Shown here piece after piece: positions 18,362-60,307 of a stretch of DNA of 64,000 nucleotides. The notes below the pieces were generated by a model. The model was not told the DNA's origin, did not search any database, and saw nothing but the letters and a program-made list of their open reading frames with translations. The DNA comes from Raja brachyura (taxonomy: Eukaryota). The DNA lies in the NCBI GenBank assembly GCA_963514005.1, contig OY740814.1, positions 11,656,001-11,720,000 of the forward strand. Reading direction: 5' to 3'. Position numbers and translations under genes: made by a program. Numbering within the stretch: the stretch's first letter is position 1; each line of letters begins with the position of its first letter.

Positions 18362-20241
18362 CTGCAAAACAATGCAACAATAGTCACTTAATTCCACTCT
18401 GCTGCAAAGTTCAATATTGTCCATTCAACTCAAAACAACATTTGATCTTTAATCTGATTTATCTCAACACTTTCTCATAAACAAACTGAAAAATGAGAAC
18501 AGTTTTGAATGCATAAATTTTGGCTTCAGCTTTAAGTGTCGAAACAACTTTACACACGACCAGAAACGATTTATTGATAATACTAGTTTTCAATTTTCAC
18601 CTATTTAATAAATTGACATTAATATTAAAATTTAGCAGGCAGCAAGCAGCTTTTTTCCAATCTAAAGATGTGTGATGCAACAGTTAACAAAGGTCAATAA
18701 ATACGAGGAAGCCTGTTACATTACCAAGACCAGCTGCAGATTCTATTTACACGAGAACACGAATCAGACCTCAAGTGACAATGCATTTATTAAGATTATA
18801 CATTTAACGAGAAATTTGGACTCAACACTCCAGATTTACCTTCTGTAAAATGCTGTACATTCTTAATATTAAATACCAGGCTTTCATTTCTCATTATTTG
18901 TAAATTGACATCGATAACTTATGTTACTTTGCTTTCAAGATGTAATTTTCCACAGATAGCACCTATTAGTAACCTCGCTTTACCCTGAACATGACAGAGA
19001 ATTTGTTTTAAATATTATACTGATTTAGAGATTATATATTGAGTTATTACAATTTCATGGAAACAATACAATCCATCCAAGAGATACTGTTATATCTTTG
19101 CAAAAGTATGCTTCACATTAACTTATTCACCGACACCATGATCCATAAAAAGAACATTTGTGTTTGAATAGAACATACTCACAACAAGGCACAACATTTC
19201 ACTTTTTCAGATCATTTCCTTACTGTTTTCAACCTACTGATTACTGTTTGGAATAATCAATAGTTGAATCTTTGGCTTTGTACGATCAATAAATATTGAT
19301 TGCAACTCCTTTGGGAGGTTTAAGCATTCAGAAAGATAATCTGCTTGATGAAAAATGAGGTAGTATTTGAAACTGTCACAAATCTGCCATCTGCCCCAAA
19401 CCTGTGAAACCAGGGTCACAATTTAATATACATTTCACTCTAGAAATCAGTCCACTTCATTTCCTTCAACATCCCAGAGTCAATATTCAATGATTTCTAC
19501 ACAGTAATTTAAATACTTGTAATGGTGAGTTTTAATGCGTGATTCACAAAAACACAGACATACATCCAATAATTAGCATCCCTAAAATAAATAATATATA
19601 ATGAAACTAAAGTATACAAGCAGTTTTGGTCAAAATTAACATGAAAGAAAATATCTACTTGAAAGATATCAGGCCATGTTAGAAAACCAGTGTCATACCA
19701 ATCATACCAATAAGTTATTTTAATAAATGAAGTCTTAGAAATGTGATCAACAAAAACAGAAACTGATTATAATCCTCTCCAATGTTTTGTCCTACGCAAG
19801 ATTCTATTAAATCCTTCTTACTAACTTGCAATGTTTCAAATCTTGTCTATTGTGCTCCGTGTTAATTGCTTTATGGAACTCGGCTCAAGGCTTAAACGAA
19901 TGCAAAGAAAAATTGACAAATGTCTGATTCTACATTATTGGCAACAAAAAAACCTTTTAACTGAATGACAAAAACATCTGCAAAATCACAACGCTTCAAG
20001 GCAATCTCTGGAAATTTTAATTATCATCTTTGACGCTAAAAGGTCTTGCAGACATGGAGATAATGACGGTCATCCATCAACTGCATCCTGCCCGAGTAAT
20101 CAGGCTAATCTAGCTCACTGGAGAAACAGACAGCAACCTAGGGTACCGAGTAATAAAACATTGCAGTACAATAAACAGATGCAAAGTAAATGTTGTCGGG
20201 GTAAACATTGCTCTTGATTTACACCAGTCCATGGAAACAGT

Positions 20242-20295
20242 GGGGTGGAAGATTGCAACCTTCACGTGGACCGCCCTGTTTCGACTAATGCAATC
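20242..20295 (+). ncRNA. Predicted minimal HDV-like (double-pseudoknot) self-cleaving ribozyme
   Basis: P1 GGGGUGG/CCGCCCU with G1-U wobble, P2 GAUUGCA/UGCAAUC, P3 ACC/GGA (one mismatch), L3 UUCACGU, P1.1 C-G, J4/2 CUAA with candidate catalytic C20285. P4 is reduced to a UUUCGA linker. Confidence 0.8.
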
Positions 20296-20385
20296 AACTC
20301 GACGTGCATAAACGGAAGATCAAATAGAACAAGTTGTCCAACAACTTTAGGCTGTGCACGCCACACGAAAGAAGAAGAAGAAGAA
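20242..20385 (+). mobile_element. Short non-autonomous retroposon with (GAA)n tail and 5' HDV-like ribozyme
   Basis: Flanked by direct repeat gaaacagtg (20234-20242 and 20386-20394), with (GAA)n tail ~20367-20388. No tRNA A/B boxes. Confidence 0.85.
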
Positions 20386-20974
20386 GAAACAGTGAGCCCG
20401 ATCAAGTCCAATGCAAGTCAAGTTGCCCATCCAGTCTACAACACAAATCGCATCCCCAACTACTGCATCTGCACATCCCACAAGCAACCTTCCACTCTGC
20501 CCCTAAACTTACTAACTATTAACTTTCATCAAGGACATGTTGTTTTTCTTAATTTCGCTGTATAGGTGTTTTAGTAAATTGTACATTTTTTTTAAATGAT
20601 AATTCATAAATCCAATTAAACTTTTTAAACAACTTTGAATATCCAAGGCTTTAGAATCTGCAGTAATGCCTTTGACAGCAGTTGGCAGTCATAAATCGTC
20701 AGTATTGATCAGGTGAACCAGTGGAATTCACCACCAGAAGCCTGGTGGCCACTGCAGCCCACACTCTCATGCACAGGACTGTGGAATGGAGTGCTCCAAC
20801 TACAGCTCGTCACAAAATGGCTGCAGGATTAGCAGGACCAGGTCTACACAGTAGTCTGGACTCAAAATGACTCCTCCAGCCATTGAAAAGCAGCAAAAGA
20901 AAAATCAAGTATGGAATCTGGTTTCACATTTATTGTACTTAAACAACTCGACCATTATTCGCAGAGCTAGTTAT

Positions 20975-22652: not shown

Positions 22653-22781
22653 TTTTTGGGTTACACAAAAAGCTGGAGAAACTCAGCGGGTGCAGCAGCA
22701 TCTAAGGAGCGAAGGAGATAGGCGACGTTTCAGGTCGAGACCCTTCTTCGATTCTCCAGCATCTGCAGTTCCTTCTTTAAC
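22653..22781. mobile_element. Penelope-pLTR-derived short element with inverted 5' segment
   Basis: TSD acaaggtagtc (22642-22652, 22782-22792). Segment 22658-22749 is the reverse complement of 30933-31024 with one mismatch, followed by a plus-oriented tail ccagcatctgcagttcctt. Confidence 0.88.
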
Positions 22782-23427
22782 ACAAGGTAGTCATTTTTAC
22801 TTGTAAAAGTGCTTTATTAAACAATGAGATAATTGAAATTCGCCAACGGATGTAGGATATTCAAATTCTATATCATTGTAATCACAGTGGGGAAGACATG
22901 AATAAATGTTTAGGTTTATCGAACCCCATTGAAATTTTTCGTTTCGGATTTATGGAAGAATCAGAAACTGAATCCTTTATGTAACTCGAGGACTACGTAT
23001 CTAAAAACCATTATAACCCCAAAATATTGCAAAACAAACTAAAAAATAACGAACTAAAAAGGAATTTGCCTTCCCTCTTGCCCCCAAATCAACTGTTCCA
23101 CAAAACTACTCTGCAAAATAACTGGTACAAGATCTGAAAAGCGATGCTTCAGAATAAATGTCTGGGTATCTTACCGACACTGGACTCCATGTCTAAATCC
23201 AATAACGCCAGGAATTCTGCATTTAACAAGCCATGAGCGAGGCTCCTAAATGACTGCAGCAAAACAATTAAATACTGATGGTTATCTGCAAATTGTCAGC
23301 TCCTGACAAGTAGGTTACCATGTAAACAGAGCTGAGAGATCAGCCAAAAGATGAAGCATTTGTAAACACTTCTCCATTTGATTTCTCAGATAGCACTACA
23401 TTAATTTACAAAAATCCAAGAGGGACA

Positions 23428-23568
23428 CAGGGAAATGCAGATGCTAGAATCATGCTTACAACACAAAGTGCTAGAATAACTCGGAGGTCTCAGCCCAAAA
23501 TGTCATATATTCATATCCTCCAGAGATGATGCCTGACCCGCTGAGTTACTCCACACTTCGTGTTCTAA
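23428..23568. mobile_element. Penelope-pLTR-derived short element (diverged, partly inverted)
   Basis: Minus part tgcagatgct...acacaaagtgctagaataactc, then plus part ctccagagatgatgcctgacccgctgagttactcca. Confidence 0.7.
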
Positions 23569-23845
23569 TTAAAACACAAAGTGCATCGGGCTTTAGTTTT
23601 ATGGCCGGAAGAGAAAAATAAACAGTTGCAGATATGTTATGTGAATGGCTGATGGCTCTAGCTGCAGTTAACAATATTTATTTTGCAGTAACTATATTCA
23701 TACAAATTTAAGTGACTACATTTTCACACATCTTTCAAACAATACTTTAATATGAATTCTGCAACACATATACAATAACATATGGTACATATTTGAGAAT
23801 GTAGCAAATAGATGCAGGTGCATTCAATTAAAAAATGCTGCACAT

Positions 23846-23996
23846 GACAGAAAATGCAGGAGTAACTCAGCGGGACAGGTAGCATCTCTGGAGAGAAAGA
23901 ATGGGTGACATTTCGACCCAAAAAGGCACCCATTCCTTCTCTCCAGAGATGCTGCTTGTCCAGCTGAGTTACTCCTGCATTTTGTGTCTATCTTCG
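23846..23996. mobile_element. Penelope-pLTR-derived element forming a 62-bp-arm inverted repeat
   Basis: Arms 23846-23907 and 23927-23988 are reverse complements with 5 mismatches. Confidence 0.85.
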
Positions 23997-30323: not shown

Positions 30324-30923
30324 TATTGAATGCATGCACAGAGTGTGAAGAATTACGTAGGTGAGATTTAGCAAGGAGCCATGGATATATACAGCAGAAA
30401 AGGTAAACAAACTTTCTCACAGAGAGAGAGAGAGGAAACAAATCAGGAGAGCAAATTAAATAAATTCCTTTGAATGAGACCTGCAAAGAGGTCACCTTCA
30501 TTTCCCTTAATTAAACAATGCTATTTAATTATTCAAATAGGTATAATTTTGGAATTCACCAAAGGCATGAACCAGGGTCACTTTAGCAGTTCAAGTTTGC
30601 ATCGAAGAAAGAAAAACTCATATTCAAAAGCATCATATCAGTGTAAGTGTTTCTAAAGGCTTCTCACAACCAGCTGGACCTTTGAATATGGTCATTTGTT
30701 GTTTGCATACCTCTTTGTTGGTTATGTCGAACAGTCCTTGTTCCAAACACACACTGGGACCTGATGAAGGTTCTCGACCCGAAACGTCACCTATTCCTTA
30801 TCTCCAGAAATGCTGCCTGACCGGCTGAGTTACTCCAGCATTTTGAGTTTATCCCCTCAACTCTTTCTCCACTACATTAACGACTACATTGGAGCTGCCT
30901 GCTACACCTGTCCAGAACTTATT

Positions 30924-30965
30924 GATTGGTCTGAAGAAGGGTCTCGACCCGAAACGTCGCCTATC
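30924..30965 (+). ncRNA. Predicted minimal type I hammerhead ribozyme
   Basis: CUGAAGA (30931-30937), extra A, stem II GGGU-CUCG-ACCC, GAAA, CG, UC. Predicted cut after C30958. Helix I gattggt/gcctatc. Confidence 0.78.
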
Positions 30966-31023
30966 TCCTTCGCTCCTTAGATGCTGCTGCACCCGCTGAG
31001 TTTCTCCAGCTTTTTGTGTAACC
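30928..31023 (+). mobile_element. Young 96-bp Penelope-pLTR-derived insertion
   Basis: TSD cttattgatt (30918-30927, 31024-31033). Confidence 0.9.
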
Positions 31024-32501
31024 CTTATTGATTTCATTTATCACTAACTTCCACCCTGCCCTCAAATTCACTTGGACTATCTGACAACTCTTCCCCAGTC
31101 ACAGGGCACAGACTATTGACTGATGTCTACTACAAACCCACCGACTCACACACCTCCTCTCACCCGTATCTTGCTAAGACGCCATCCCCTACCCTTAAAT
31201 TCTCCGTGTCTGCTGCATCAGCTCCCAAGATGAGGCTTTGCATTCCAGGACATCAGAGATATCCTCTTTCTTTGGTAATGTGTTCCCCCATATTGTCATA
31301 GACGGACCCCTTACCCGCATCTCCTCCGGGTTGCGTAGTTCTGCTCTCGCTTCCCGCTCTCCCCAGATGGAATAAGATTTTTGTCTCTAACCTTAGTCCC
31401 ACCATCTGCCTACGATACCATCTGTATCCACCTAATCCAAAGCCAGTCTTTAACCCGGCCCTCCTCTCTTCTTCCCCCACCCCCACCACAATCAGTCTGA
31501 AGAAGGGTCCCAACCCAAAACATCACCTATCCATGTTCTTCAGAGATGCTGCCTGACCTGTTGAGTTACTGCAGCACTTTGTGTCTTTAGCTGAAATGTC
31601 ACCTAATTTTCAGCAAAATCTTGGGTTATTGTTGGGTTTTATTTCTGTACGTAATGAGTACAAACACCAGATTAGTATTCTGAACTTTCAGGTCGGATTT
31701 CTTCAAATGGTATTTACATTCAGTATCTGCAATAGAACTGGTTTCATGAGATATGCTTCTGCAAAAGGCTATATTTTCCTGCATTTCACACGGGAACAGT
31801 TTGTTCCTACCTTTGCACTTCTACAGAGTGGCTTTTAAAGAGTGCTACATAAATCAGAAACATGGGGATGTTAAAGGAACTCTAGCCAAAAAATAAAAAT
31901 AATTTAATTTTAAATGTTGGGTAAATTGCACAAGAGTTGAGGAATGCAGGGGTCATAGACTATTGAGGGCGTTGGATTTATACAGGGACAAAGCTATGGA
32001 GAGATCTGGATAACATAAAAAAGCAGAATTTTAAAATAATTGAACAGAAAGCCAATACTGTACAAGGGAAAATGGCAAAGGACACATGGCTGGGTATCAG
32101 ATTTATCCAAATTTCCAATTTACAACAGCTGCAATCAAAAATTACTTTAAGAAAGATAAATACTGCTTTGATTGTGCAACTGAAAATCTTATTTTGTGAA
32201 GTACTTGTGTAAGCCCTCTGGTGGCAAGTAAAATATTCCATAAGGAACAATTCTGTGTTCAAGTGGTGCTTTCAGAACATTCTTCATCTGTTAAAATGTA
32301 AAAATCCCAGTGGCAGTATACAGGTTGTAACTGAATGGTCTTAAAAACAGCGATTGAGGTTCCAAATCCCACCAGTTAGGTAAAATCATTAGGCTCCGTC
32401 TGATTAATAATTTAGCTAATTAGGCAAAATGAGCACTATTGCAATATTAACAAATTACACAATAGATTTGAACCACATTGTGGTGAATTCCACAAATCCA
32501 C

Positions 32502-33459: not shown

Positions 33460-33501
33460 TTAGCCAAACAGCCCTTGTGTTTAGCCAAACAGCCCTTGTG
33501 T
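33460..33501 (+). repeat. 21-bp perfect tandem duplication
   Basis: ttagccaaacagcccttgtgt x2, adjoining the next insertion. Confidence 0.9.
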
Positions 33502-33507
33502 TTATGA

Positions 33508-33589
33508 GTCAGAAGAAGGGTCTCGACCCTAAACGTCACCCATTCCTTCTCTCCTGTCCTGCTGAGTTACTCCAGCTTTTTGTGTCTAT
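33508..33589 (+). mobile_element. 82-bp Penelope-pLTR-derived insertion (hammerhead core mutated)
   Basis: TSD cttgtgtttatga (33495-33507, 33590-33602); core reads gtcagaagaagggtctcgaccctaaacgtc. Confidence 0.88.
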
Positions 33590-33796
33590 CTTGTGTTTAT
33601 GATCCATTGGATAGTTTTGGTTTCTGTTGCCAAACAGTGCGATCTTCTATTTACTACTTACTATTTACTGAGCTTTCCCTGAAACGTCATTCCATGTTCT
33701 CGCAATTATGAATAACATTTCTGCTGAGCTGTTATTTGGATTTCTTATCTTCTTAGGAAAATTAGATTAAAATGTATTCTGGGGAAACTATGCAGA

Positions 33797-33896
33797 GGTC
33801 TGAAGAAGGGTGTCGACCCGAAACATCACCTACTCCTTTTCTCCAGAGATGCTGTCTGACCTGCTAAGTTACTCCAGCTTTTTATGTCTATCTTCA
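33797..33896 (+). mobile_element. Penelope-pLTR-derived short element with hammerhead core
   Basis: ggtctgaagaagggtgtcgacccgaaacatcacc...ctccagagatgctg..agttactccagc. Confidence 0.85.
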
Positions 33897-34906
33897 AATA
33901 TCTAATCACTACCCTAGTGGTAAATTGGACAAAGGTTTCTGGATGAAAGAGTCACACAATTTATCCATTCTGCAATTTAACTTTAATTCTCAAAAATATT
34001 CCAACCCTACTTCTATCTATAGCGGAGATGTTAACTGCCTTTTGCCAAAAACCACAGCTGCTGGACGAATCAATTCCATGCCAAATTACTCATTCAGCCA
34101 TGAACAATGGGAAAGCAGAGCAGGGGAAAATAACAACTACAACATACAGCATTAACAATAAACTAAAGGATCCCTGCAGAGATCAATGACAAAACAAGTT
34201 TTCAACCACAATCACTATTTCAACCTAACCTTTAGATGATCACCTATAAACTCCGCCCCTCCAAATGATTCTGATGCCAATGACAATCAATGCTCACAGT
34301 ACATGCAATTATCTTGATTTTAATTTTGAATTGCTAATATTACCTTTGCATTAGCATTTTTAACTAAACTCTGCAATAAATAGGATGAGCCAATGTGCAA
34401 AATTAGTTTGTACTTGATTGTTTTGTGAACCACATATTGCTCATTTTTTCCCTCAAATTTCAAAAACTCATGTGTTGCCAACAGCTTGATTGCACAGCCC
34501 AGCGCATAGGCAATCACAATTGATGTTTGTACTACACCTCAGGCACATCCAGTGCCCTCCATAATGTTTGGGACAAAGACCCATCATTTAATTATTTGCC
34601 TCTGTACTCTACAATTTGAGATTTGTAATAGAAAAAAAAACATGTGGTTAAAGTGCACATTGTCAGATTTTATTAAAGGCCATTTTTATACATTTTGGTT
34701 TCATCATGTAGAAATTACAGCTGTGTTTATACAGTCCCCCCATTTCAGGGCACCATAATGTTTGGGACACATGGCTTCACAGGCATTTGTAATTGCTCAG
34801 ATGTGTCTAATTGCCTCCTTAATGCAGGTACAAGAGAGCTCTCAGCACCTAGTCTTTCCTTCAGTCTTTCCATCACCGTTGGAAACTTTTATTGCTGTTT
34901 ATCAAA

Positions 34907-35916: not shown

Positions 35917-36722
35917 ATTAATTCTCCGACATTTTCAACCAATAGATAATCCTCCGACTTTTTCGCCACTTCCAACGGGATCCCACCACTGGCCACATCT
36001 TCCCATCTCCTCCCCTTTCAGCTTTCCACAGAGCCCGCTCCCTCCGTAACTCCCTAGTCAATTTGTCCCTTCCCACCCAAACCACCCACTCCCCTGGTAC
36101 TTTCCCTTGCAACTGCAGGAAATGCTACACTTGTCGCTTTACCTCCCCCCTTGACTTCATGCAAGGACCCAAGCAGTCTTTCCATGTGCGGCAGAGGTTC
36201 ACTTGCACATCCTCCAACACCATTTATTGCATCCACTGCTCTAGATCGGTGAGACCAAGCATAGGCTCGGCGATCGCTTCGCCCAACACCTTCACTCGGT
36301 TCGCACTAATCAACCTGATCTCCCAGTAGCCCAGCACTTCAACTCCCCATCCCATTCCGAATTCGACCTTTCTGTCCTGGGCCTCCTCCATGGCCAGAGT
36401 GAGTCCCACCACAATTTGGACGAGCAGCACCTCATATTTAGCTTAGGCAGTTTACACCCCAGCGGTATGAACATTGTATAGTGTCAGGTAGTCCTTGCTT
36501 TCTCCCTCCTTCCCCTCCCCTTCCAAGCTCTCCCACAGCCTACTGTCTCCTCCTCTTCCTTTCATCTGCTCCCCCCCCCACCTCCACATCAGTCTGAAGA
36601 TGGATCTCGACCCAAAATTTCACCTATTCCTTCGTTCCAAAGATGCTGCCTCACCCGATGAGTTTATTCAGCATTTTTGTCTACCTTCGATTTTTCCAGC
36701 ATCTGCAGTTCTTTCTTAAACA
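35917..36722 (+). mobile_element. Penelope-like element 3' part (GIY-YIG endonuclease remnant plus pLTR) nested in the Tc1
   Basis: PGTFPCNCRKCYTC..FTCTSSNTIYCIHCSR..GETKHRLGDRFAQHL. pLTR at 36590-36722. TSD aaaatactaaa(c/t)at at 35903-35916 and 36723-36736. Confidence 0.9.
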
Positions 36723-38858
36723 AAAATACTAAATATGGCTACTTTCATTTACATGGCATTGCTGTGTGCCAAACATTACAGTGCCCTGAAAAGGGGGGGG
36801 CGGGACTACGTATAAACATTGCTATAATTTCTACATGGTGAAACCAAAATATATAAAAATGGCCTCTATTAAAATCTGACAATGTGCACTTTAACCACAT
36901 GTGATTTTTTTCTATTGCAAATCTCAAATTGTGGAGTACAGAGGCAAATAAATAAATGAGATGTCTTTGTCCCAAACATTATGGAGGGCACTGTATTGCA
37001 TGAGGCATCATACATATGAAATGCCAATCCCAACTGTTCACATAGAACAGTTAATATTGGTGTTTTCTTGCCATACTTCATCTATACAATGAGTTCCAAT
37101 GCATCTATTTGCACCCTAGGACAGTACTAGGACCCTAGGACGCTGCAAGGCTCTATTTGCATCACACTTAAAGTATTTCAATGCTACCAATGCTATCGCA
37201 AAGAGCGAGCAACAACACGAGTCATGCCGCTCGTGGGTAAAACAAAACTAGGCCTATACCATGCTTCACACTTATTCGGCAATTGTACAGAAAATGCCAT
37301 CTATTGACAAAAATAAAGCACATTTACCCGGCAGGGTATTGCTTATTTGAAAAAGGTAAGTAATCAAAAGCACAAGTTCAACAAACACAAAGTGATAAGC
37401 AAGTGGCTCCTCAGTCTTCACGAACAAATCTGCAGCAACTGAAAAGAACTTCAGGATAACCATTCACCCCTATAAGCCAATTTTAGAATTCAATTACATA
37501 TCTGTGGATCTGTATCAAAACTATTTACACAAATTGCACTATATGCCTACACATTCTTACTAGGAAAATCCATTAACATCGTCGTCAACATTTCAATTGG
37601 CACAGCATATTTGGCAAGCTGTGTTTCAATTCCAATTATACTGATGTTTCCTAGACTCATTTTCACCCTGGTCCTTTTCTTCCTTCATTTTGCCTACAAT
37701 CACCACTGGTAACCGCATTATCTTCCTCCAAAACTTTGCTGCAAAGCACCTCTGAGTGAGAAAGCACATATCTTCATTTTAATTTTTCTCTAGTAATTTG
37801 TAGCCACAGAATCATCTGGAATTTCTGCTCTTGCCCCCACATTATCACTGAGAGCTCCCAAATATTGTGGATTCTTTCCGTATGCCTGCTGTCTCCCAAC
37901 ATCTTTCCACAGTAAAGCGCACAAGTACAGTGACAACCCTCAGTCCCAACTCACTTCTTGCAACCATTCCAAACGCTCACATTTGAAATCTGTTAGATGA
38001 GCATAAATTTCCCCAGATAAATATTTGGAAGACCTGTATACATGTATTTTCCTGCCACTAATCTCAGCAATCTGTCTACAACTGTAGGAATCTGACCTCA
38101 ACCTTTCGTGACTTATTTGCAGAAACCGATTCATAACATCACCATGGCTCCCAATCCCCAACTCCATAAAGTCCAACTCAAATCTCCAATCAAAACATTA
38201 CCCCACATGAACCCCAGATTTATTTGTTTCAATGTTTGTTCTGGAATACCTCCCAACTGCTATACTGTTGGGAGTTAATCTTATCCAACATTATGCCATA
38301 CATCAACTCATAACATGCGCGCCCCCCCCCCCCCCCGCCCTCCCCCGATTTCCATGTTGCTACTGTTCACCTCAACCAATATAATTATTTCCACCCTTTC
38401 CTCACCAACCAGACTCCATCTACCCATCAACTCCTGTGCAACCTAACCCACTTAACACCTGCCAGCTCTTGTCTCACCCCACCCCCTCATCCCTTTATGC
38501 TGGCTATCTCCTCTGTAAACTAAGTCTTGATGCAGGGTGTCAATATTTCTCTCTCTCTCTCTCTCCAGATGTTGCCCGACCCAGAGCATTGTCAGCAATC
38601 ATTTTCTTTCAAATCTGCATCGTCACCTCCTTACATATCCCCAGCTCAGCTGCCAATAACCATGCTTTCTACTGCTAGACCCCACGATTTGAAATTCTCT
38701 GAATCTCTCCAGTCATCCAGCATCATGTTCTCTGGTTAGCATATGTAATGCATGGTGTAATGGGGATCAGTCCTGGACCCACAACATTTTACAAAGATAT
38801 ATAAATAACTGGAAGGCAAATGTATGTAAGATTAATATAAGAAAGGAATGTGAACAGG

Positions 38859-42292: not shown

Positions 42293-42632
42293 GACCCGAT
42301 GAAAAGTCTCAACCTAAAATGTCAACTGTCCATTTCCCTTCAAAGACTGCATGACCTGCTGCGTTCTCAGAGTTCTTCCAGCTGCTCTATTTTGAAGAAG
42401 GGGCTCGACCTGAAACGTCACCAATTCCTTCTCTCCAGAGATGCTGCCTGTCCCACTGAGTTATTGCAGCATTTTGTGTATATTTTCGATGTAAACCAGC
42501 ATCTGCAGTTCCTTCCGACACAAAAGAGATTGCAGATGCAGGAGTCTGAAGAAGGGTGCCAACCTGAACCATTGTTTGTCTATTTCTCTCCACAAATACT
42601 GCCTGGCCCTTTGATTTCCTCTAGTAGTTCTT
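42293..42632 (+). mobile_element. Cluster of three Penelope-pLTR-derived short elements
   Basis: Hammerhead-like starts at ~42297 (ccgatgaaaagtctcaacctaaaatgtc), 42392 (ttgaagaaggggctcgacctgaaacgtc) and 42546 (ctgaagaagggtgccaacctgaa). Confidence 0.8.
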
Positions 42633-43344: not shown

Positions 43345-44405
43345 GAATGCCTTTATTGTCATTCAGACCTTTCGGTCTGAACGAAATTTCGTGCCTGCAG
43401 TTATACATATATAAAAATAACAATACCATACAATAAACACAAAATTAACATCCTCCACAGTGAGTTCACCAAACACCTCCTCACTGTGGTGGAAGGCAAA
43501 AGTCTTAGGGTCTCCGTCTTTTCTCCCCTCCTTATTCTCCCTCTGCGCTGAGGGGATCCAGGCCGCCGCCACCGCTGACGCCGGAACACCGCCACAGGGC
43601 CCGCCGCCGGAACGTCGCTGGAGCACCGCAGCTCCCGAAAGCCAGGCCGCCGCTGGAGCACCGCAGCTCCCGAAAGCCAGGCCGCCGCTGGAGCACCGCA
43701 GCTCCCGAAACCCAGGCCGCCGCTGGAGCACCCAGCTCCCGAAACCCAGGCCGCCGCTGGAGCACCGCAGCTCAGAGGGAGCCAGGCCGCCGCTGGAGCA
43801 CCGCACTCAGAGGGAGCCAGGCCGCCGCTGGAGCACCGCAGCTCAGAGGGAGCCAGGCCGCCGCTGGAGCACCGCAGCTCCCGACACCCAAGCCGCCGCT
43901 GGAGCACCGCAGCTCCCGACACCCAGGCCGCCGCTGGAGCACCGCAGCTCCCGACACCCAGGCCGCCGCTGAAGCACCGCAGCTCCCGACACCCAGGCCG
44001 TCGCTGGAGCACCGCAGCTCAGAGGGAGCCAGGCCGCCGCTGGAGCACCGCAGCTCCCGACACCCAGGCCGCCGCTGGAGCACCGCAGCTCCCGAAGCCC
44101 AGGCCGCCGCCGGAAGCCAGGTCGCCGCTGAAGCTCTGAAGGCCGTGCCGCCGCCGCTGGAAGCTGGAAGGCCGTCACCAGGTCCTCAGCACAGACGGAG
44201 ACGGTGTCGGGGGACACGACAGGAAAAGTCGCATCCCCCCGAAGGGAGAGACTAAAACCCCGTTTCTCCCACCCTCCCCCCCCCCACACACATACACAAC
44301 CCGACAAACCAAAAATAAACACCAAAAACAGGGACGAGGACAAAAATAAAATAAAAGACAGACGGACCGCAGGTGAGCCGCAGCTGACAAGCAGCGCCAC
44401 CACTC
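43345..44405 (-). mobile_element. GC-rich non-autonomous retroposon family, copy C with expanded minisatellite
   Basis: ctttattgtcatt tail signature at 43351, hairpin ccacagtgag/ctcactgtgg, and 5' region similar to 16960-17160. Confidence 0.82.
43615..44110. repeat. GC-rich minisatellite, about 14 units of 35/36 bp
   Basis: Unit ccaggccgccgctggagcaccgcagctc followed by ccgacac, ccgaaag, ccgaaac or agagggag. Confidence 0.95.
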
Positions 44406-48645: not shown

Positions 48646-48771
48646 CAGGTTTGTTTCTACCCGAAACGTTGCCCATTTAATTCGCTCCATAGATGCTGCC
48701 TCACCCACTGAGTTTCTCCAGCATTTTTGTCTACCTTCGATTTTCGAGCATCTGCAGTTCCTTCTTAAACA
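48646..48771 (+). mobile_element. Penelope-pLTR-derived insertion, truncated within the hammerhead
   Basis: TSD aactgaaatagta (48633-48645, 48772-48784); body matches 36610-36722. Confidence 0.88.
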
Positions 48772-50810
48772 AACTGAAATAGTATTTAATTTAGGAATTG
48801 GTCTAATATAGGTAACAACAGAGTGAAGTTCATTATTTTTACATAACAGACACAAGTAGACCAGTTCCTCCAGTTGTTCATACATCAAACTCCAGCTAAT
48901 AGTTTGTTCACAATATCATCCACAATCCTGGTCAAATCCCATTTGGCTCAATTCCCTTAAACTCCAAATATTGTTGAATATTCACAATAAGCATCAAAAA
49001 ACTAGTAGTAAAAATTTGACAAATTCACAGTTAAGACATACTTATTACTCCAATCCGAGCAGCCATCCACTTTGTCCTGGAAACTTCAGTTAAAGGAAGA
49101 AGCAATTACATTTCCAAAGGGGCAACATCATCTTACATGGGTCTTTAAATTAAGATCCAGACTATCCGCTCACCATTGTAAGGGCAAAGGAATTCTCACT
49201 AGTGCTCTGGTCATCATTTATTCCATCAGCCAAGATCACAACCCTTGAGCATGAGAGCTGCATGTGAAATCTTGCATGTAAATTATCTGCCAAATTTCTT
49301 ATAACAGCAGCGACACTTCAAAAGTACTTCCTTGTCTCCATAAAAATATTGCAACAGTTTGCAGACTGTTTGCAATCCCATTCACAGGTAAGTGCACATC
49401 TGCTTTGGTTGCTATAAAGAACAGCATCAATAGAAATGTTGTGATAACCAGAGGCTGAATTGTGCAGTGTTTCAATTGCAAATACAAGCATTGCTTTGAA
49501 AAAGTAAGCTTACTGCACTCAGTTAGGTAAATGTTGATACAGAAACATAACTTCTAGAACATTAAAGCTTCACAACGATCAATACTGAGAAAGACCTTCA
49601 CAAAGGGTTGCCCTGCTGGTTTATAAGATGCCATGGTGAGAGAACTAATTTTTATCAATGAACTCAAAATCAAAGTACTTATATGATCAAATTACATTTT
49701 TATTCTTTTAAAATTGGTTCATAGTCGATAATGATTTTTATGTATGAGATTAGATGCCTAAGATTCAACGTACAAAATATATATTGTCATTCTTGAAAGG
49801 TAAAGTAATCGACGTCAGTTGCATTGAATTAGCAGGAGACTTCAACCTGCGTTAATGCTGCATCACAGGGCTGTCCTCGTGGGATTTAAAGAAGCATAAA
49901 TACTCTCTCAGCATTCACATGATTTAACAGAGACCAATTCAGCAAGACTTAAAAATCAACAGCTATGAGCAATAGATACCTTGGGATGTAGATTAGTGAT
50001 TTATGCAAAGCTAAATGTATGGTAGATTTCTGCACAGGTATTTAAAAAAAAATGCAAACTATATTTTGGTTGAATCATAGGCTGATGTGTGATCTTTTGT
50101 GGGCTGGAAAGCGCCGTCTCCTTATTTAAAAATTTAAACTTTTTTTTAAAATCGATCAGTGAAAAAAAAATAACTGCAAATGAATATTTATATTTTCAGT
50201 TTTGCTATGCATGAATGGCCAAATACAAAAAACAAAAAGAGACCACAAACACATTTGGTTACAAAGCATGACCAATATTTCCTGACTGTATACAGCTTTC
50301 ATTATCATTCAGAAGAAGCAAACTACATATTTGTGCAGTGACATTGTAGAAAACATTTGGTTCCAATCTGGGGGGAAACACATTGTTACCAGTAAATGCT
50401 GATTAGGATCGAAAAGGGGAACATTAAATATATGAGTTTTGATGATCTATACCTTGGCCTATTGATTTGCTTTCCGTACTTCAAAAGTTGTTAACTATTG
50501 GTTTCAATATTACGCTTCTTTAAACAAAAAAATAACTCCAACACTTTGCTGCATGGATGACAGAAAGGATATACAAATACAACAACAGAAGAAAGTTCAC
50601 ACTGAACCATTTATCAAAAAAAAGGATGTTAATCATTCATAAATATTCTAGAATTCCGAATTAATAAAATCTGAAGTGAAAATTTCAATTATTGATAAAT
50701 GATAACCCTTTAAGTTTGCTAACTTTTTGAACACATGAATTTACAAGACACATACGACTGCTTTTTCATCAACCAAATCATCACATTATACTGAGTGATG
50801 AGTACACTGC

Positions 50811-57480: not shown

Positions 57481-57669
57481 CACGAAGATGGGCTGGAGTA
57501 ACTCAGCGAGACAGGCAACACCTCTGCATAGAAGGAATGGGTGACGTTTCGGATCGAGACCCTTCTTCTGACAAATTCCTTCTATCTAGGGATGTTGCCT
57601 GTCTCGCTGAGTTACTCCAGCATTGTGTGTCCATCTTTGGTGTGAACCAGCATCTGCAGTTCCTTCCTA
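57481..57669. mobile_element. Penelope-pLTR-derived insertion with inverted 5' segment
   Basis: TSD tccattgatttc (57469-57480, 57670-57681). Minus segment 57492-57572, then a plus segment. Confidence 0.88.
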
Positions 57670-60307
57670 TCCATTGATTTCAGTAAGGTTTGAAGGGTGT
57701 TGTTTACTTTATACTTACATGTTTTTACCTTGGATTTTATTAAAATATCATAATATTAATAGTTTTTAAACATTCATAATTTTTTTTAAAGTCGCAACAA
57801 TTTTGACAACTGACGGGAATTTTAGTTCAGGATTTCTCTTTTTCAAGTTCTTAGTACTTCCCACCACCAATTTCTGGAACTCTTCAGGCCGTCCATATCC
57901 AAATCTAGAAGCTTGGGCATGCGGCAGGTACAAGGGCCACTGTGGATTATAAGCCTGTGCCAACAATATCTGATCAGGCAAGAGATTGTTGTCATGAGCA
58001 AATAGCCACTCCAATCTTTTTAAAAAAGATTTAATAAATATCTTGGGGAGATTGATCTCCCAAAACAAAAAAACCTATCATAACTTGCTATTTAACCACT
58101 TTGCGCAGACTATCGGCAAATATTAGACAACTTGCTGTTCATCAGAACCATTTTTGTTTTCCCCCCATAGCTGCAGTCTTTTCTGCTCAGAAATAAATAC
58201 TGAAAATAAAAGGTCCATTTTATTAGTAAAGAGAGTGTGTTTTGTCTATCTTATGAAATGAAATGCATTCAACTTTCAATAAACTAGAATTTAGTATTAA
58301 TTGGCAGTGTCTACAGAACAGGTTACTATCACCCCTGCACAAAACAAATAAATGATAAAAAAGGCAGACTTTTCAGTATCTAATTAAGTTATTTTTTAAT
58401 AGAAGTCCAAGTGCAACTTGAAAATGAAATCTCATAGTGAGTAGACAGAAAAGTATGACCAAGTAGTAGAAATGGGCTTTGGGGGGGGGGGGGGGGGTGG
58501 AGGAGATAATTAGATCACATCACCAGAGTGGAAGCAGATGATCAGAGCATTGGAACGAGTACGCAATTTTAAGTCATCATGGGATCAAATGACACCAAGG
58601 TTCAACTTTAGTCAGTTGACAAGGAAACAATTTCTAGCTGGGACCAAAGACAATAACTTCACTGTCTCACTAAGAGATTTCTGTTCAAGATTTAGATACA
58701 GAACAAAATCTGCCAATTTTGAGACAGCATACAAATAGTGAACAGCCAGGTGTATATCAATAGACACTGACACTATGTTTGAATATTATATCTAAAAGGG
58801 CAGAGTGCAGATGAAAAATAAACAAATAATTTGTAAGGCATCTAGCACTGCAGTAGCATTATCCGCCTGGTGTGTTGATGAATTAACTTTACAATATGGA
58901 TCTTCCCCAGTTTACTGGGAGACCAGTAGGATGCATTTGCCGGCTGCAGTGGAGCTGCAGACATCTTCTGCTGTGTGAGAACATTATTCTGAGCAGTATC
59001 TGAACGGTAAAGTTAAATGCCCTGGCTTAACTACACAATGCCTTGGTTGACCAATATTTTTATTTAAGTATATTGCCAGGCAGCCGCTTTTACAACTTGC
59101 AAACACATCGGGCGACAAACTGCTCTTAGGAACTGGGAGGATCTGTACAGCTATAAATGAACCCGTCATACTGGGAATGCAGTGGCTTCTCTAAACTGCA
59201 TTCCATGCCCGTGTGCAATGCCAAAAGAGGCTTACTAATATTAAATAGCAGCTGAAATAAGATCATCTTATTTTCTAGCAAGCAGAAATGGTTAAAACTG
59301 AAAAATACTGTTACTTAAAATACCCGTGCATTTGAAATAAAACTAGGATGTCTGAATTACAAACTTACCAAAGCATATCAATCAATTTTAATTCCTGTAA
59401 TTATGCCCCACATCTGCTTTAAGAAAGATAAGCTACCTTCCTGGGAAGGTTAACAGTACATTTACAGGAGAATACAGAACCTCTTCAGCAATTCTTTTCA
59501 TATCTTTGTTGTTGACTCAAAGCCAGGATGACAACCGAATGAACATGAAGATCAAGGGCAACAAAGTAAAAATATACAGATTTACAAGACCACAGGGCAG
59601 CACAAGACTCACAAAAATAGGGTTCAAGACAACTTCTGCAGCCTAAAACCTAGAATCCTCTGAGACTATTAGATCAGCAGTCACTGAACATTCATCATTC
59701 CCTAGGCTGAAGGCAAACTTTCAAGACAGCATTAATAGGGCAAAAACAGGCTACACGATCTGTGCTACGTGCCATCAGTTCAACCAAAGGGCTCGTGACT
59801 GCTGGCTAAATAAGTCAAATCACTGCCTGCTTATGGATGCATGTCACAGCTTCTTCTGCTATTCAGTTATTTGCCTACTCCACAAGATGAGGTGTACAAG
59901 CTTTACTGATTAAAGGACACTGGACAGATGCAATTGGTAGTACACATAAAAATGCAATGTTCCCATGCTACCTTTTAAAATGTTAAGCACCTGTTATTAA
60001 TGTGTTTTATGTTTGACAAGACGCTGGAATGTTTATCAAGATGCTGGAATATTTATCTAGAGAATGGATGAACTTCAAAAAAAAAAAATCACTTCATGCC
60101 AGGGACGACTTACCAAACTACAAACGCAGGTTGTATCAAATTAGTAATGCTGCACCTTACATCAAAATTCTACAGTGAGAAAAAACTACTTCAATTGCAC
60201 AAAGTAGTCACAGTAAGGTTGCAGAAACATGATCCTAATTTTTGCTTCTGTCTCATAACTCCAATGATTTCCATGCGAGTGTGCTGTGCAGCAAAAACAT
60301 TTGGAAC

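Follow-up and report, generated by a model that had tools for sequence, protein, structure and literature searches.

A short insert in the window, by which we mean the whole 64-kb stretch of DNA analysed, belongs to an abundant retroposon family of elements about 130 bases long with (GAA)n tails, and we show here that this short element is an internal-deletion derivative of a 3.1-kb single-ORF LINE. It consists of the first ~72-79 bases of the LINE, a junction of ~20 bases, the last 37 bases of the LINE and (GAA)n. Our overall reading, to which we assign a probability of about 0.75, is that the parent is a Vingi-like LINE and that the derivative has kept a predicted minimal ribozyme head, which likely releases the element RNA from host transcripts. 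In the proposed mechanism, a host transcript would read through a copy of the element, and the ribozyme would cleave the read-through RNA exactly before G1. The freed RNA would be bound at its 3' end by the endonuclease-reverse transcriptase of the LINE, a step in which a stem of the 3' UTR with the bases that follow the ribozyme would probably assist, and target-primed reverse transcription would then insert a full-length copy.

The insert and the short-element family

The first-pass annotation of the window had described a 144-bp insert between gaaacagtg repeats. The repeat is present, but G20242 had been counted twice, and the insert is either 144 nt between 8-nt duplications or 143 nt between 9-nt duplications. 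The positions given there for P1, P2, P3, L3, J4/2 and the tail agree with the sequence base for base (Table 1). A descriptor of the HDV fold, run on both strands of the 64-kb window, gave no strict match and a single match, the insert itself, when one mismatch in P3 was allowed; the same descriptor had no match in 60 first-order Markov sequences of 64 kb. Rfam gave no match, either for the window with gathering cut-offs or for the window copy with an E-value cut-off, and none came from a tRNA search of the window or from Pfam on its 81 stop-free stretches. When the 144 nt were folded by a plain method, which cannot form pseudoknots, the result was unremarkable (z 0.42).

Table 1. Positions of the insert and its parts in the window
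Feature	Position	Strand	Basis or remark
Left target-site duplication	20234..20241	+	8 nt; G at 20242 possibly part of it; sequence
Predicted HDV/CPEB3-type ribozyme, 54 nt, essentially without P4	20242..20295	+	Descriptor match; weak Rfam CPEB3 match of an intact copy; four further LINE families
Ribozyme P1	20242-48/20271-77	+	G1.U36; sequence
Ribozyme P2	20251-57/20289-95	+	7 Watson-Crick pairs; sequence
Ribozyme P3	20258-60/20268-70	+	A.A mismatch from the P3-breaking change at 20270
Ribozyme L3	20261-67	+	Sequence
G20278 and U20279	20278, 20279	+	Checked against the sequence
J4/2	20285-88	+	Candidate catalytic C20285
5'-terminal segment of the 3.1-kb partner LINE	20242..20313	+	Element positions 1-72; 85-92% identity to LINE 5' ends running into the endonuclease ORF
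5' arm of the predicted 5'-3' stem	20303..20310	+	In the LINE, ~3 kb from its partner arm
Deletion junction, ~20 nt	20314..20333	+	Alignments; inserted letters at joints in public contigs
Segment from the LINE 3' end	20334..20370	+	Agrees with the common LINE end at 32 of 37 bases
LINE last codons, stop codon (20348-50), short 3' UTR and 3' arm of the stem (20353-60)	within 20334..20370	+	
(GAA)5 tail	20371..20385	+	Tail also found in the partner LINE and in families A, D and E
Right target-site duplication	20386..20393	+	Sequence

Other repeats are found in the same window. A GC-rich tandem array of about 15 copies of ~35-nt units lies at 43571-44141. An abundant short interspersed repeat is present in many copies (22658-23988, 30737-31621, 33500-33924, 36570-36724, 42368-42630, 48653-48808 and 57492-57675), some of which are inverted pairs 7-36 nt apart (23846-23988, 57492-57621). 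There are also two long inverted repeat pairs with 91-95% complementarity, at 1137-1341/32506-32710 and at 34547-34732/36810-36996; the latter pair, lying around about 2.1 kb, could be the ends of a DNA transposon.

The expectation that the insert would prove multicopy was borne out in the host genome (2.7 Gb, 1,647 contigs), whose repeats seem to resemble those of cartilaginous fishes. A search with the 144-nt insert produced 235 candidates; the 40 that were scored are all 95-100% identical. Exact matches to a 28-nt core motif numbered 4,556, those to the core with the LINE-type P1 base 1,069, and those to a 35-nt motif spanning the junction 5,553, with no match for the reversed-pattern controls of the three motifs. 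Within the leading 49 Mb of contig 1, 25 of 67 core matches coincide with 25 of 100 tail matches, and from this overlap we estimate ~15,000-18,000 copies, a figure that is probably low since young copies match both motifs. In 30 tail-picked loci (29 distinct), 25 copies align from G1, where the 5' ends had been predicted to lie, and 29 from position 5 or earlier. Target-site duplications, mostly of 11-13 bp, could be called in 22 of the 30, and they end at offset 0 or +1 in 15 cases and at -1 or -2 in five. The short element thus has its own amplification with target-site duplications, and it has no coding capacity.

Three subfamilies can be told apart, of which S1 is closest to the LINE and S3 includes the window copy. 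The set used to define them has 156 rows (6 copies of S1, 51 of S2, 78 of S3 and 21 unclassified, two of those counted twice), and divergence from the commonest letter of each column is 5.5% for S1, 4.6% for S2 and 3.7% for S3. Most of the 1,069 matches that have the LINE-type P1 base are short elements, through CpG decay or membership of S1; 30 such matches were read over ~200 bases each, and none continues into the LINE ORF. In each of 17 public runs from eight organisms, half or more of the sampled element words are present, and four of these runs are flagged as possible sources of this DNA. Three runs guessed to be RNA contain the element, in contigs that carry no information on ends, strand or level. 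Copies of the short element are also inserted in family C (L163:502-640), in family F (L113:763-906) and in a family E short element (L397), which is useful for relative dating.

The A-A mismatch in P3 of the window copy had been read as possible decay specific to this copy, with GGU as the normal 3' strand. As predicted, 99 of the first 100 core matches have ACC/GGU as their P3, with T at position 29. Non-T variants at this position number 194 (77 C, 16 A and 7 G among the first 100), and the A of the window occurs in ~0.7% of copies. The mismatch is thus decay, but it is not copy-specific, as it recurs independently in a few dozen copies. We also considered a GGA subfamily, since 12 of the 30 nearest copies carry GGA, but the nearest copies are selected by the query; such a subfamily was ruled out genome-wide, where the A variants (the 16 mentioned) fall on both S2 and S3 backgrounds. 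The ribozyme of the window copy is probably weakened by this mismatch.

The partner LINE

The partner, family C, was found by an endonuclease search of the genome and its follow-up, the lead being a lower-ranked match. The 30 best endonuclease matches belong to a different LINE group with no match to the element, and checks on families A, B, D and E and on family F, which is fragmentary, showed that none of them is the partner. Family C starts with the first 72 bases of the element and then runs into an endonuclease ORF, and one of its loci (L161) carries both element ends 3.1 kb apart; a long LINE sharing both ends had been predicted. The last 37 bases and (GAA)n are common to the short element and the LINE, and the tail of the short element contains the LINE stop codon and a 20-base 3' UTR. 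The junction between the two segments looks, from its letters, like a short duplication of LINE 5' sequence with a few further bases. Contigs of four public runs on L161 contain joints between the 5' and the 3' end in all four cases, and several of these joints carry the same inserted letters as the junction of the window element. Joints at 338-343 to 3302-3309 of L161 are further family C deletion junctions in public contigs, and the other joints on this locus suggest further independent deletions or more short subfamilies.

Pfam identified Exo_endo_phos_2 and RVT_1, and no RNase H, in six stop-free pieces of family C, and RNase H (PF00075) is likewise absent in the 120 homologues listed. An intact relative of 1,019 amino acids (P0001) is 69% identical to the query piece and aligns colinearly on L161 from residue 19 to 1019, at 55-69%; this alignment over 3 kb leaves no room in the ORF for RNase H. 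The motifs of the partner and its C-terminal cysteine-histidine knuckle presumably fit Vingi. With a single ORF, an endonuclease, a reverse transcriptase and no RNase H, the partner appears Vingi-like and not RTE-like, a clade label given by architecture only; of the Ingi/Vingi or RTE type of mobiliser proposed in the first-pass annotation, the former is the one that this architecture favours. Vingi is described as a compact single ORF without RNase H in the cited part of a 2026 review (PMC13708176).

It follows from its LINE origin how the element is to be classed. It had been called a SINE-like family headed by a ribozyme, and the predicted ribozyme head stands, but that head is inherited from the LINE and was not independently acquired, the element being an internal-deletion product. 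It is no tRNA-, 7SL- or 5S-headed SINE, as the head has no tRNA or Rfam match and is the 5' end of a LINE. Instead it has a LINE 5' part, a LINE 3' part with its tail, and its own amplification, and is therefore a bipartite non-autonomous LINE (SIDE). All family C copies that we read are broken, and the short-element family may thus no longer be mobile. The 30 best family C 3' ends differ by 4.5% from the commonest letters of their columns, a value biased low by the picking of these ends by similarity. A metagenome scan for relatives of P0001 gave 127 pattern matches and no relative. One family C copy holds a different retroelement (L172, minus strand, 2-2775) with a 681-aa open reverse-transcriptase-like frame.

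The 5' head as a candidate ribozyme

The 54-nt head is predicted to be a minimal ribozyme of the HDV/CPEB3 type that cleaves before G1. The double pseudoknot, with its elements in the right order as originally described, fits the intact short copies and the heads of five LINE families. The full descriptor is kept in 11 of 29 tail-picked short copies, which would correspond to several thousand intact heads genome-wide. P1.1 consists of one C-G pair and U-U; for CPEB3, NMR work gives one G-C plus U-U (PMC4836649, cited passage). Five bases separate U38 from the candidate catalytic C44, so that P4 can be at most one pair closing a four-base loop, in line with the near-absent P4 noted earlier. A mini-hairpin of G37-U38 with A43-C44 could trap the catalytic C. 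The head obeys the core rules set out in the relevant section of PMC6326823 (G1-Y, U and C-G in L3, and a J4/2 led by C), with G1-Y, U20 and G25 in L3 and C at the head of J4/2. J4/2 is CUAA in the LINE, S1 and S3, as in the Rfam HDV consensus, and CGAA in S2; the published HDV descriptor has CRRA at this place (PMC6326823, same section).

Rfam scores lie below the gathering thresholds of 35-50 set for models that include P4. An intact short copy reaches 17.8 bits against CPEB3 (E 0.019; gathering score 35), the best value for the short element, and family E reaches 24.1-27.3 bits, its head matching three HDV-type models below threshold with a best E of 1.6e-4. Among 135 classified copies, U20, C22, G25 and C44 hardly vary, a conservation inflated by the picking of many of these copies by core motifs. 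Since inserted copies decay, we take the evidence for selection from the source elements. Between the LINE and S1-S3, the majority letters differ at only three positions within the 54 nt, namely 8 (J1/2), 32 (in P1, where U-A becomes U.G) and 45 (in J4/2, at its second base), and at about 11 positions in the next 75 nt. The copies show little variation of the covariation type, and the structural evidence therefore rests on the five LINE families.

These five families share G1, a 7-bp P1, a P2 of 6-7 bp and a 3-bp P3, while the stem sequences differ, and they also share the U-Y-C...C-G-Y loop and a C-N-A-A or C-A-G-A linker. The proteins of families A, B, D and E are 29-56% identical to the reference in aligned stretches. 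The heads of these four families have long P4 regions; family B has A instead of G after P1, and family D, with an extra base and a longer J4/2, fits only a relaxed descriptor. Altogether 7 of 18 loci tried across the five families match the full descriptor.

The same observations can be read in other ways. The head may combine a ribozyme with an internal RNA polymerase II promoter, in which case copies would be self-transcribed and cleavage would only trim read-through transcripts. This has a precedent in the sister clade, where Pr77 of L1Tc/NARTc plays such a double role (PMC4035085, in the part cited), a direct counter-example to the 'promoterless' of the first-pass annotation, and bipartite LINEs are expected, in a passage of Kojima 2018 (PMC5786205), to be polymerase II transcripts with 5' regulatory sequence. 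An internal promoter would likewise give a start at G1, and the clear subfamilies fit a few strong source copies. Yet the five heads have in common a fold and not stem sequences, as though the shape of the RNA, more than any DNA motif, had been under selection, and we regard a promoter of this kind as possible but rather unlikely. Less probable still is a fold that worked in the ancestral LINE but has become a relic, or acts very slowly, in the short element; the latter would then have spread because its 3' end makes a good template and its shortness lets it be copied to the end. P1.1 is weak, P4 is absent, and the short element has swapped a U-A pair of P1 for U.G; SIDER1 heads compatible with folding were inactive in assays (PMC4035085, as far as the cited passage goes). 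Against such a loss of activity, none of the three head changes that define subfamilies breaks the fold, and copies begin at G1 without upstream flank, which requires cleavage or initiation there.

A tRNA-like polymerase III promoter, with the pseudoknot as a chance fit, has a negligible probability. The stretch around positions 37-45, which we take to be loosely B box-like, could be counted in its favour, but the head has no tRNA or Rfam match and runs into the LINE ORF, and the LINE origin of the head largely refutes this idea. Moreover, the descriptor gave no chance matches and the fold recurs in five families.

Possible end-to-end pairing, related families and known systems

The nested stems that had been noted in the 3' half of the insert hold up in part. 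The outer stem, between positions 62-69 and 112-119, has all 8 bp intact in most copies; in the window copy, C68T leaves a U.G pair. The inner hairpin owes part of its sequence to the junction, and 19 of 51 S2 copies have it disrupted. The outer stem joins an arm derived from the 5' end to one derived from the 3' end, which lie 3 kb apart in the LINE. In S2 it is lengthened by A-to-G at position 61 (48 of 51 copies) and C-to-T at position 59 (27 of 51). In a post hoc test, we compared the pairing of the bases after the ribozyme with the 3' end of the same family and of the others, for five families and as z against shuffles, using curated copies, at most 6 by 6 in a cell and 2 by 3 for family E. 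Among the five 3' ends, that of the same family gave the best duplex in 5 of 5 rows with 35/40-nt windows (mean z -1.2 to -4.1) and with 25/30-nt windows (mean z -1.4 to -4.8), and in 3 of 5 rows with 50/50-nt windows. Single copies were noisier: for 6 of 12, no more than 25 of 500 shuffles did as well. Internal LINE windows often pair equally well (0 to 188 of about 240-315 windows). The family C arm contains a palindrome, which weakens the case for family C. Taken as a moderate, post hoc signal, these duplexes are suggestive of a 5'-3' clasp in Vingi-like families. We put forward only tentatively, and with more doubt than confidence, that a Vingi-like RNA would be defined by two parts in cis, a 5' HDV-type ribozyme that can shrink to a 54-nt form without P4 and a clasp of the bases right behind the ribozyme with the last ones ahead of (GAA)n.

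Families A, B, D and E (L073:1358-4505, L366, L110, L123, L107) are further Vingi-like LINEs in this genome, each headed by a fold of the HDV type; families A, D and E end in (GAA)n. Family E has parent copies (L107, L121) with a long-P4 head whose P2 equals the consensus P2 of CPEB3, and it also has a short family of its own with 75 exact motif matches. Of these, 20 were read (L388-L407), and 18 of them are ~150-170 nt long with the ribozyme fold, both ends, the tail and duplications. On its sequence, the family E short family is a second independent derivative with a putative ribozyme head. The family A motif has 12 matches, one of which is a short two-ended copy with a target duplication (L385). 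The 3' UTR of family B, judged by eye at the 3' ends of L366 and L367, is also complementary to the 3' strand of the ribozyme P2, and the 3' end of this family could thus invade its own ribozyme.

The overall design is already known, to judge from the parts of the literature cited here, from NARTc, RIME, SIDERs, R2 SIDEs and hedgehog Vingi derivatives. Like the element described here, NARTc and RIME, which derive from L1Tc and ingi, join both ends of an Ingi-group LINE and carry at the exact 5' end an HDV-like ribozyme that is active there and predicted here. They are found in trypanosomes, their 77-nt Pr77 has a P4 and promoter activity, and their parent has RNase H (PMC4035085, in the sections used), in contrast to a large animal genome, a 54-nt head without P4 and a parent without RNase H in the present case. 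The R2 SIDEs resemble our element in that a 5' ribozyme and a 3' end form the minimal mobile unit, but they are rare, specific to a site in rDNA and tied to another endonuclease class, according to part of PMC3414825, whereas the copies here are dispersed and number thousands. The hedgehog derivatives of Vingi-1_EE are likewise internal-deletion derivatives of a Vingi LINE, and the passages of PMC5786205 that cite them do not mention 5'-3' pairing. The six ribozyme-bearing clades named there are R1, R2, R4, RTE, Ingi as well as LOA, with Vingi not among them (Kojima 2018, PMC5786205, in those passages), and Ruminski's 'Ingi' examples may include Vingi-like ones. Some animal non-autonomous SINEs use hammerhead or HDV-like ribozymes (a review, PMC6765202, in part).

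As to the head itself, the minimal P4-less HDV-like and theta ribozymes share with it the missing P4 domain and the short J4/2. Nearly 99% of the matches to the minimal form were in phages, the eukaryotes searched being human, mouse and protists, and the origin and function of these forms are called open in the portion cited (Kienbeck 2024, PMC10879173); here, a predicted P4-less form heads an animal retroposon instead. The mammalian CPEB3 ribozyme (Rfam RF00622) has the same L3, the same U20, C22, G25, G37 and U38 positions and a one-pair P1.1 (PMC4836649, partial text), along with the CGAA linker found in S2 and the 6-bp P2 sequence found in family E (24.1 bits, E 1.6e-4). CPEB3 differs in being an intronic host ribozyme with a P4 hairpin, and the matches of the short element and of family E stay below its gathering score of 35. 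That a Vingi-type head was the source of the mammalian CPEB3 ribozyme, as this likeness of the cores might suggest, seems improbable to us. Among the paper listings searched, none concerned a Vingi ribozyme, a P4-less ribozyme in an animal retroposon or 5'-3' pairing in Vingi, and the relevant parts of PMC4908430, PMC6326823 and a 2026 preprint hold nothing on these three subjects. Judged by these listings and passages, three things are new: a predicted ribozyme in Vingi-like elements, an animal retroposon whose head is a form without P4, and a possible clasp between the 5' and 3' ends. The short-element family may already be deposited in Repbase or Dfam.

A predicted P4-less form that heads an animal LINE and its abundant short element would give this form a concrete job. 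Vingi elements are under development as gene-insertion tools whose template RNA carries the native UTRs, 5' and 3' (PMC13708176, in the part cited), and a natural template of 130 bases shows what may suffice for Vingi gene insertion. If the ribozyme and the clasp are both needed, this would explain why two-ended short elements arose repeatedly, twice independently at scale in this genome. If both are real, they would offer Vingi gene writers a minimal template design of ~130 nt, and one animal genome would contain several thousand self-cutting RNAs in intact form. Where they are intronic, these thousands of intact copies could cut host pre-mRNAs.
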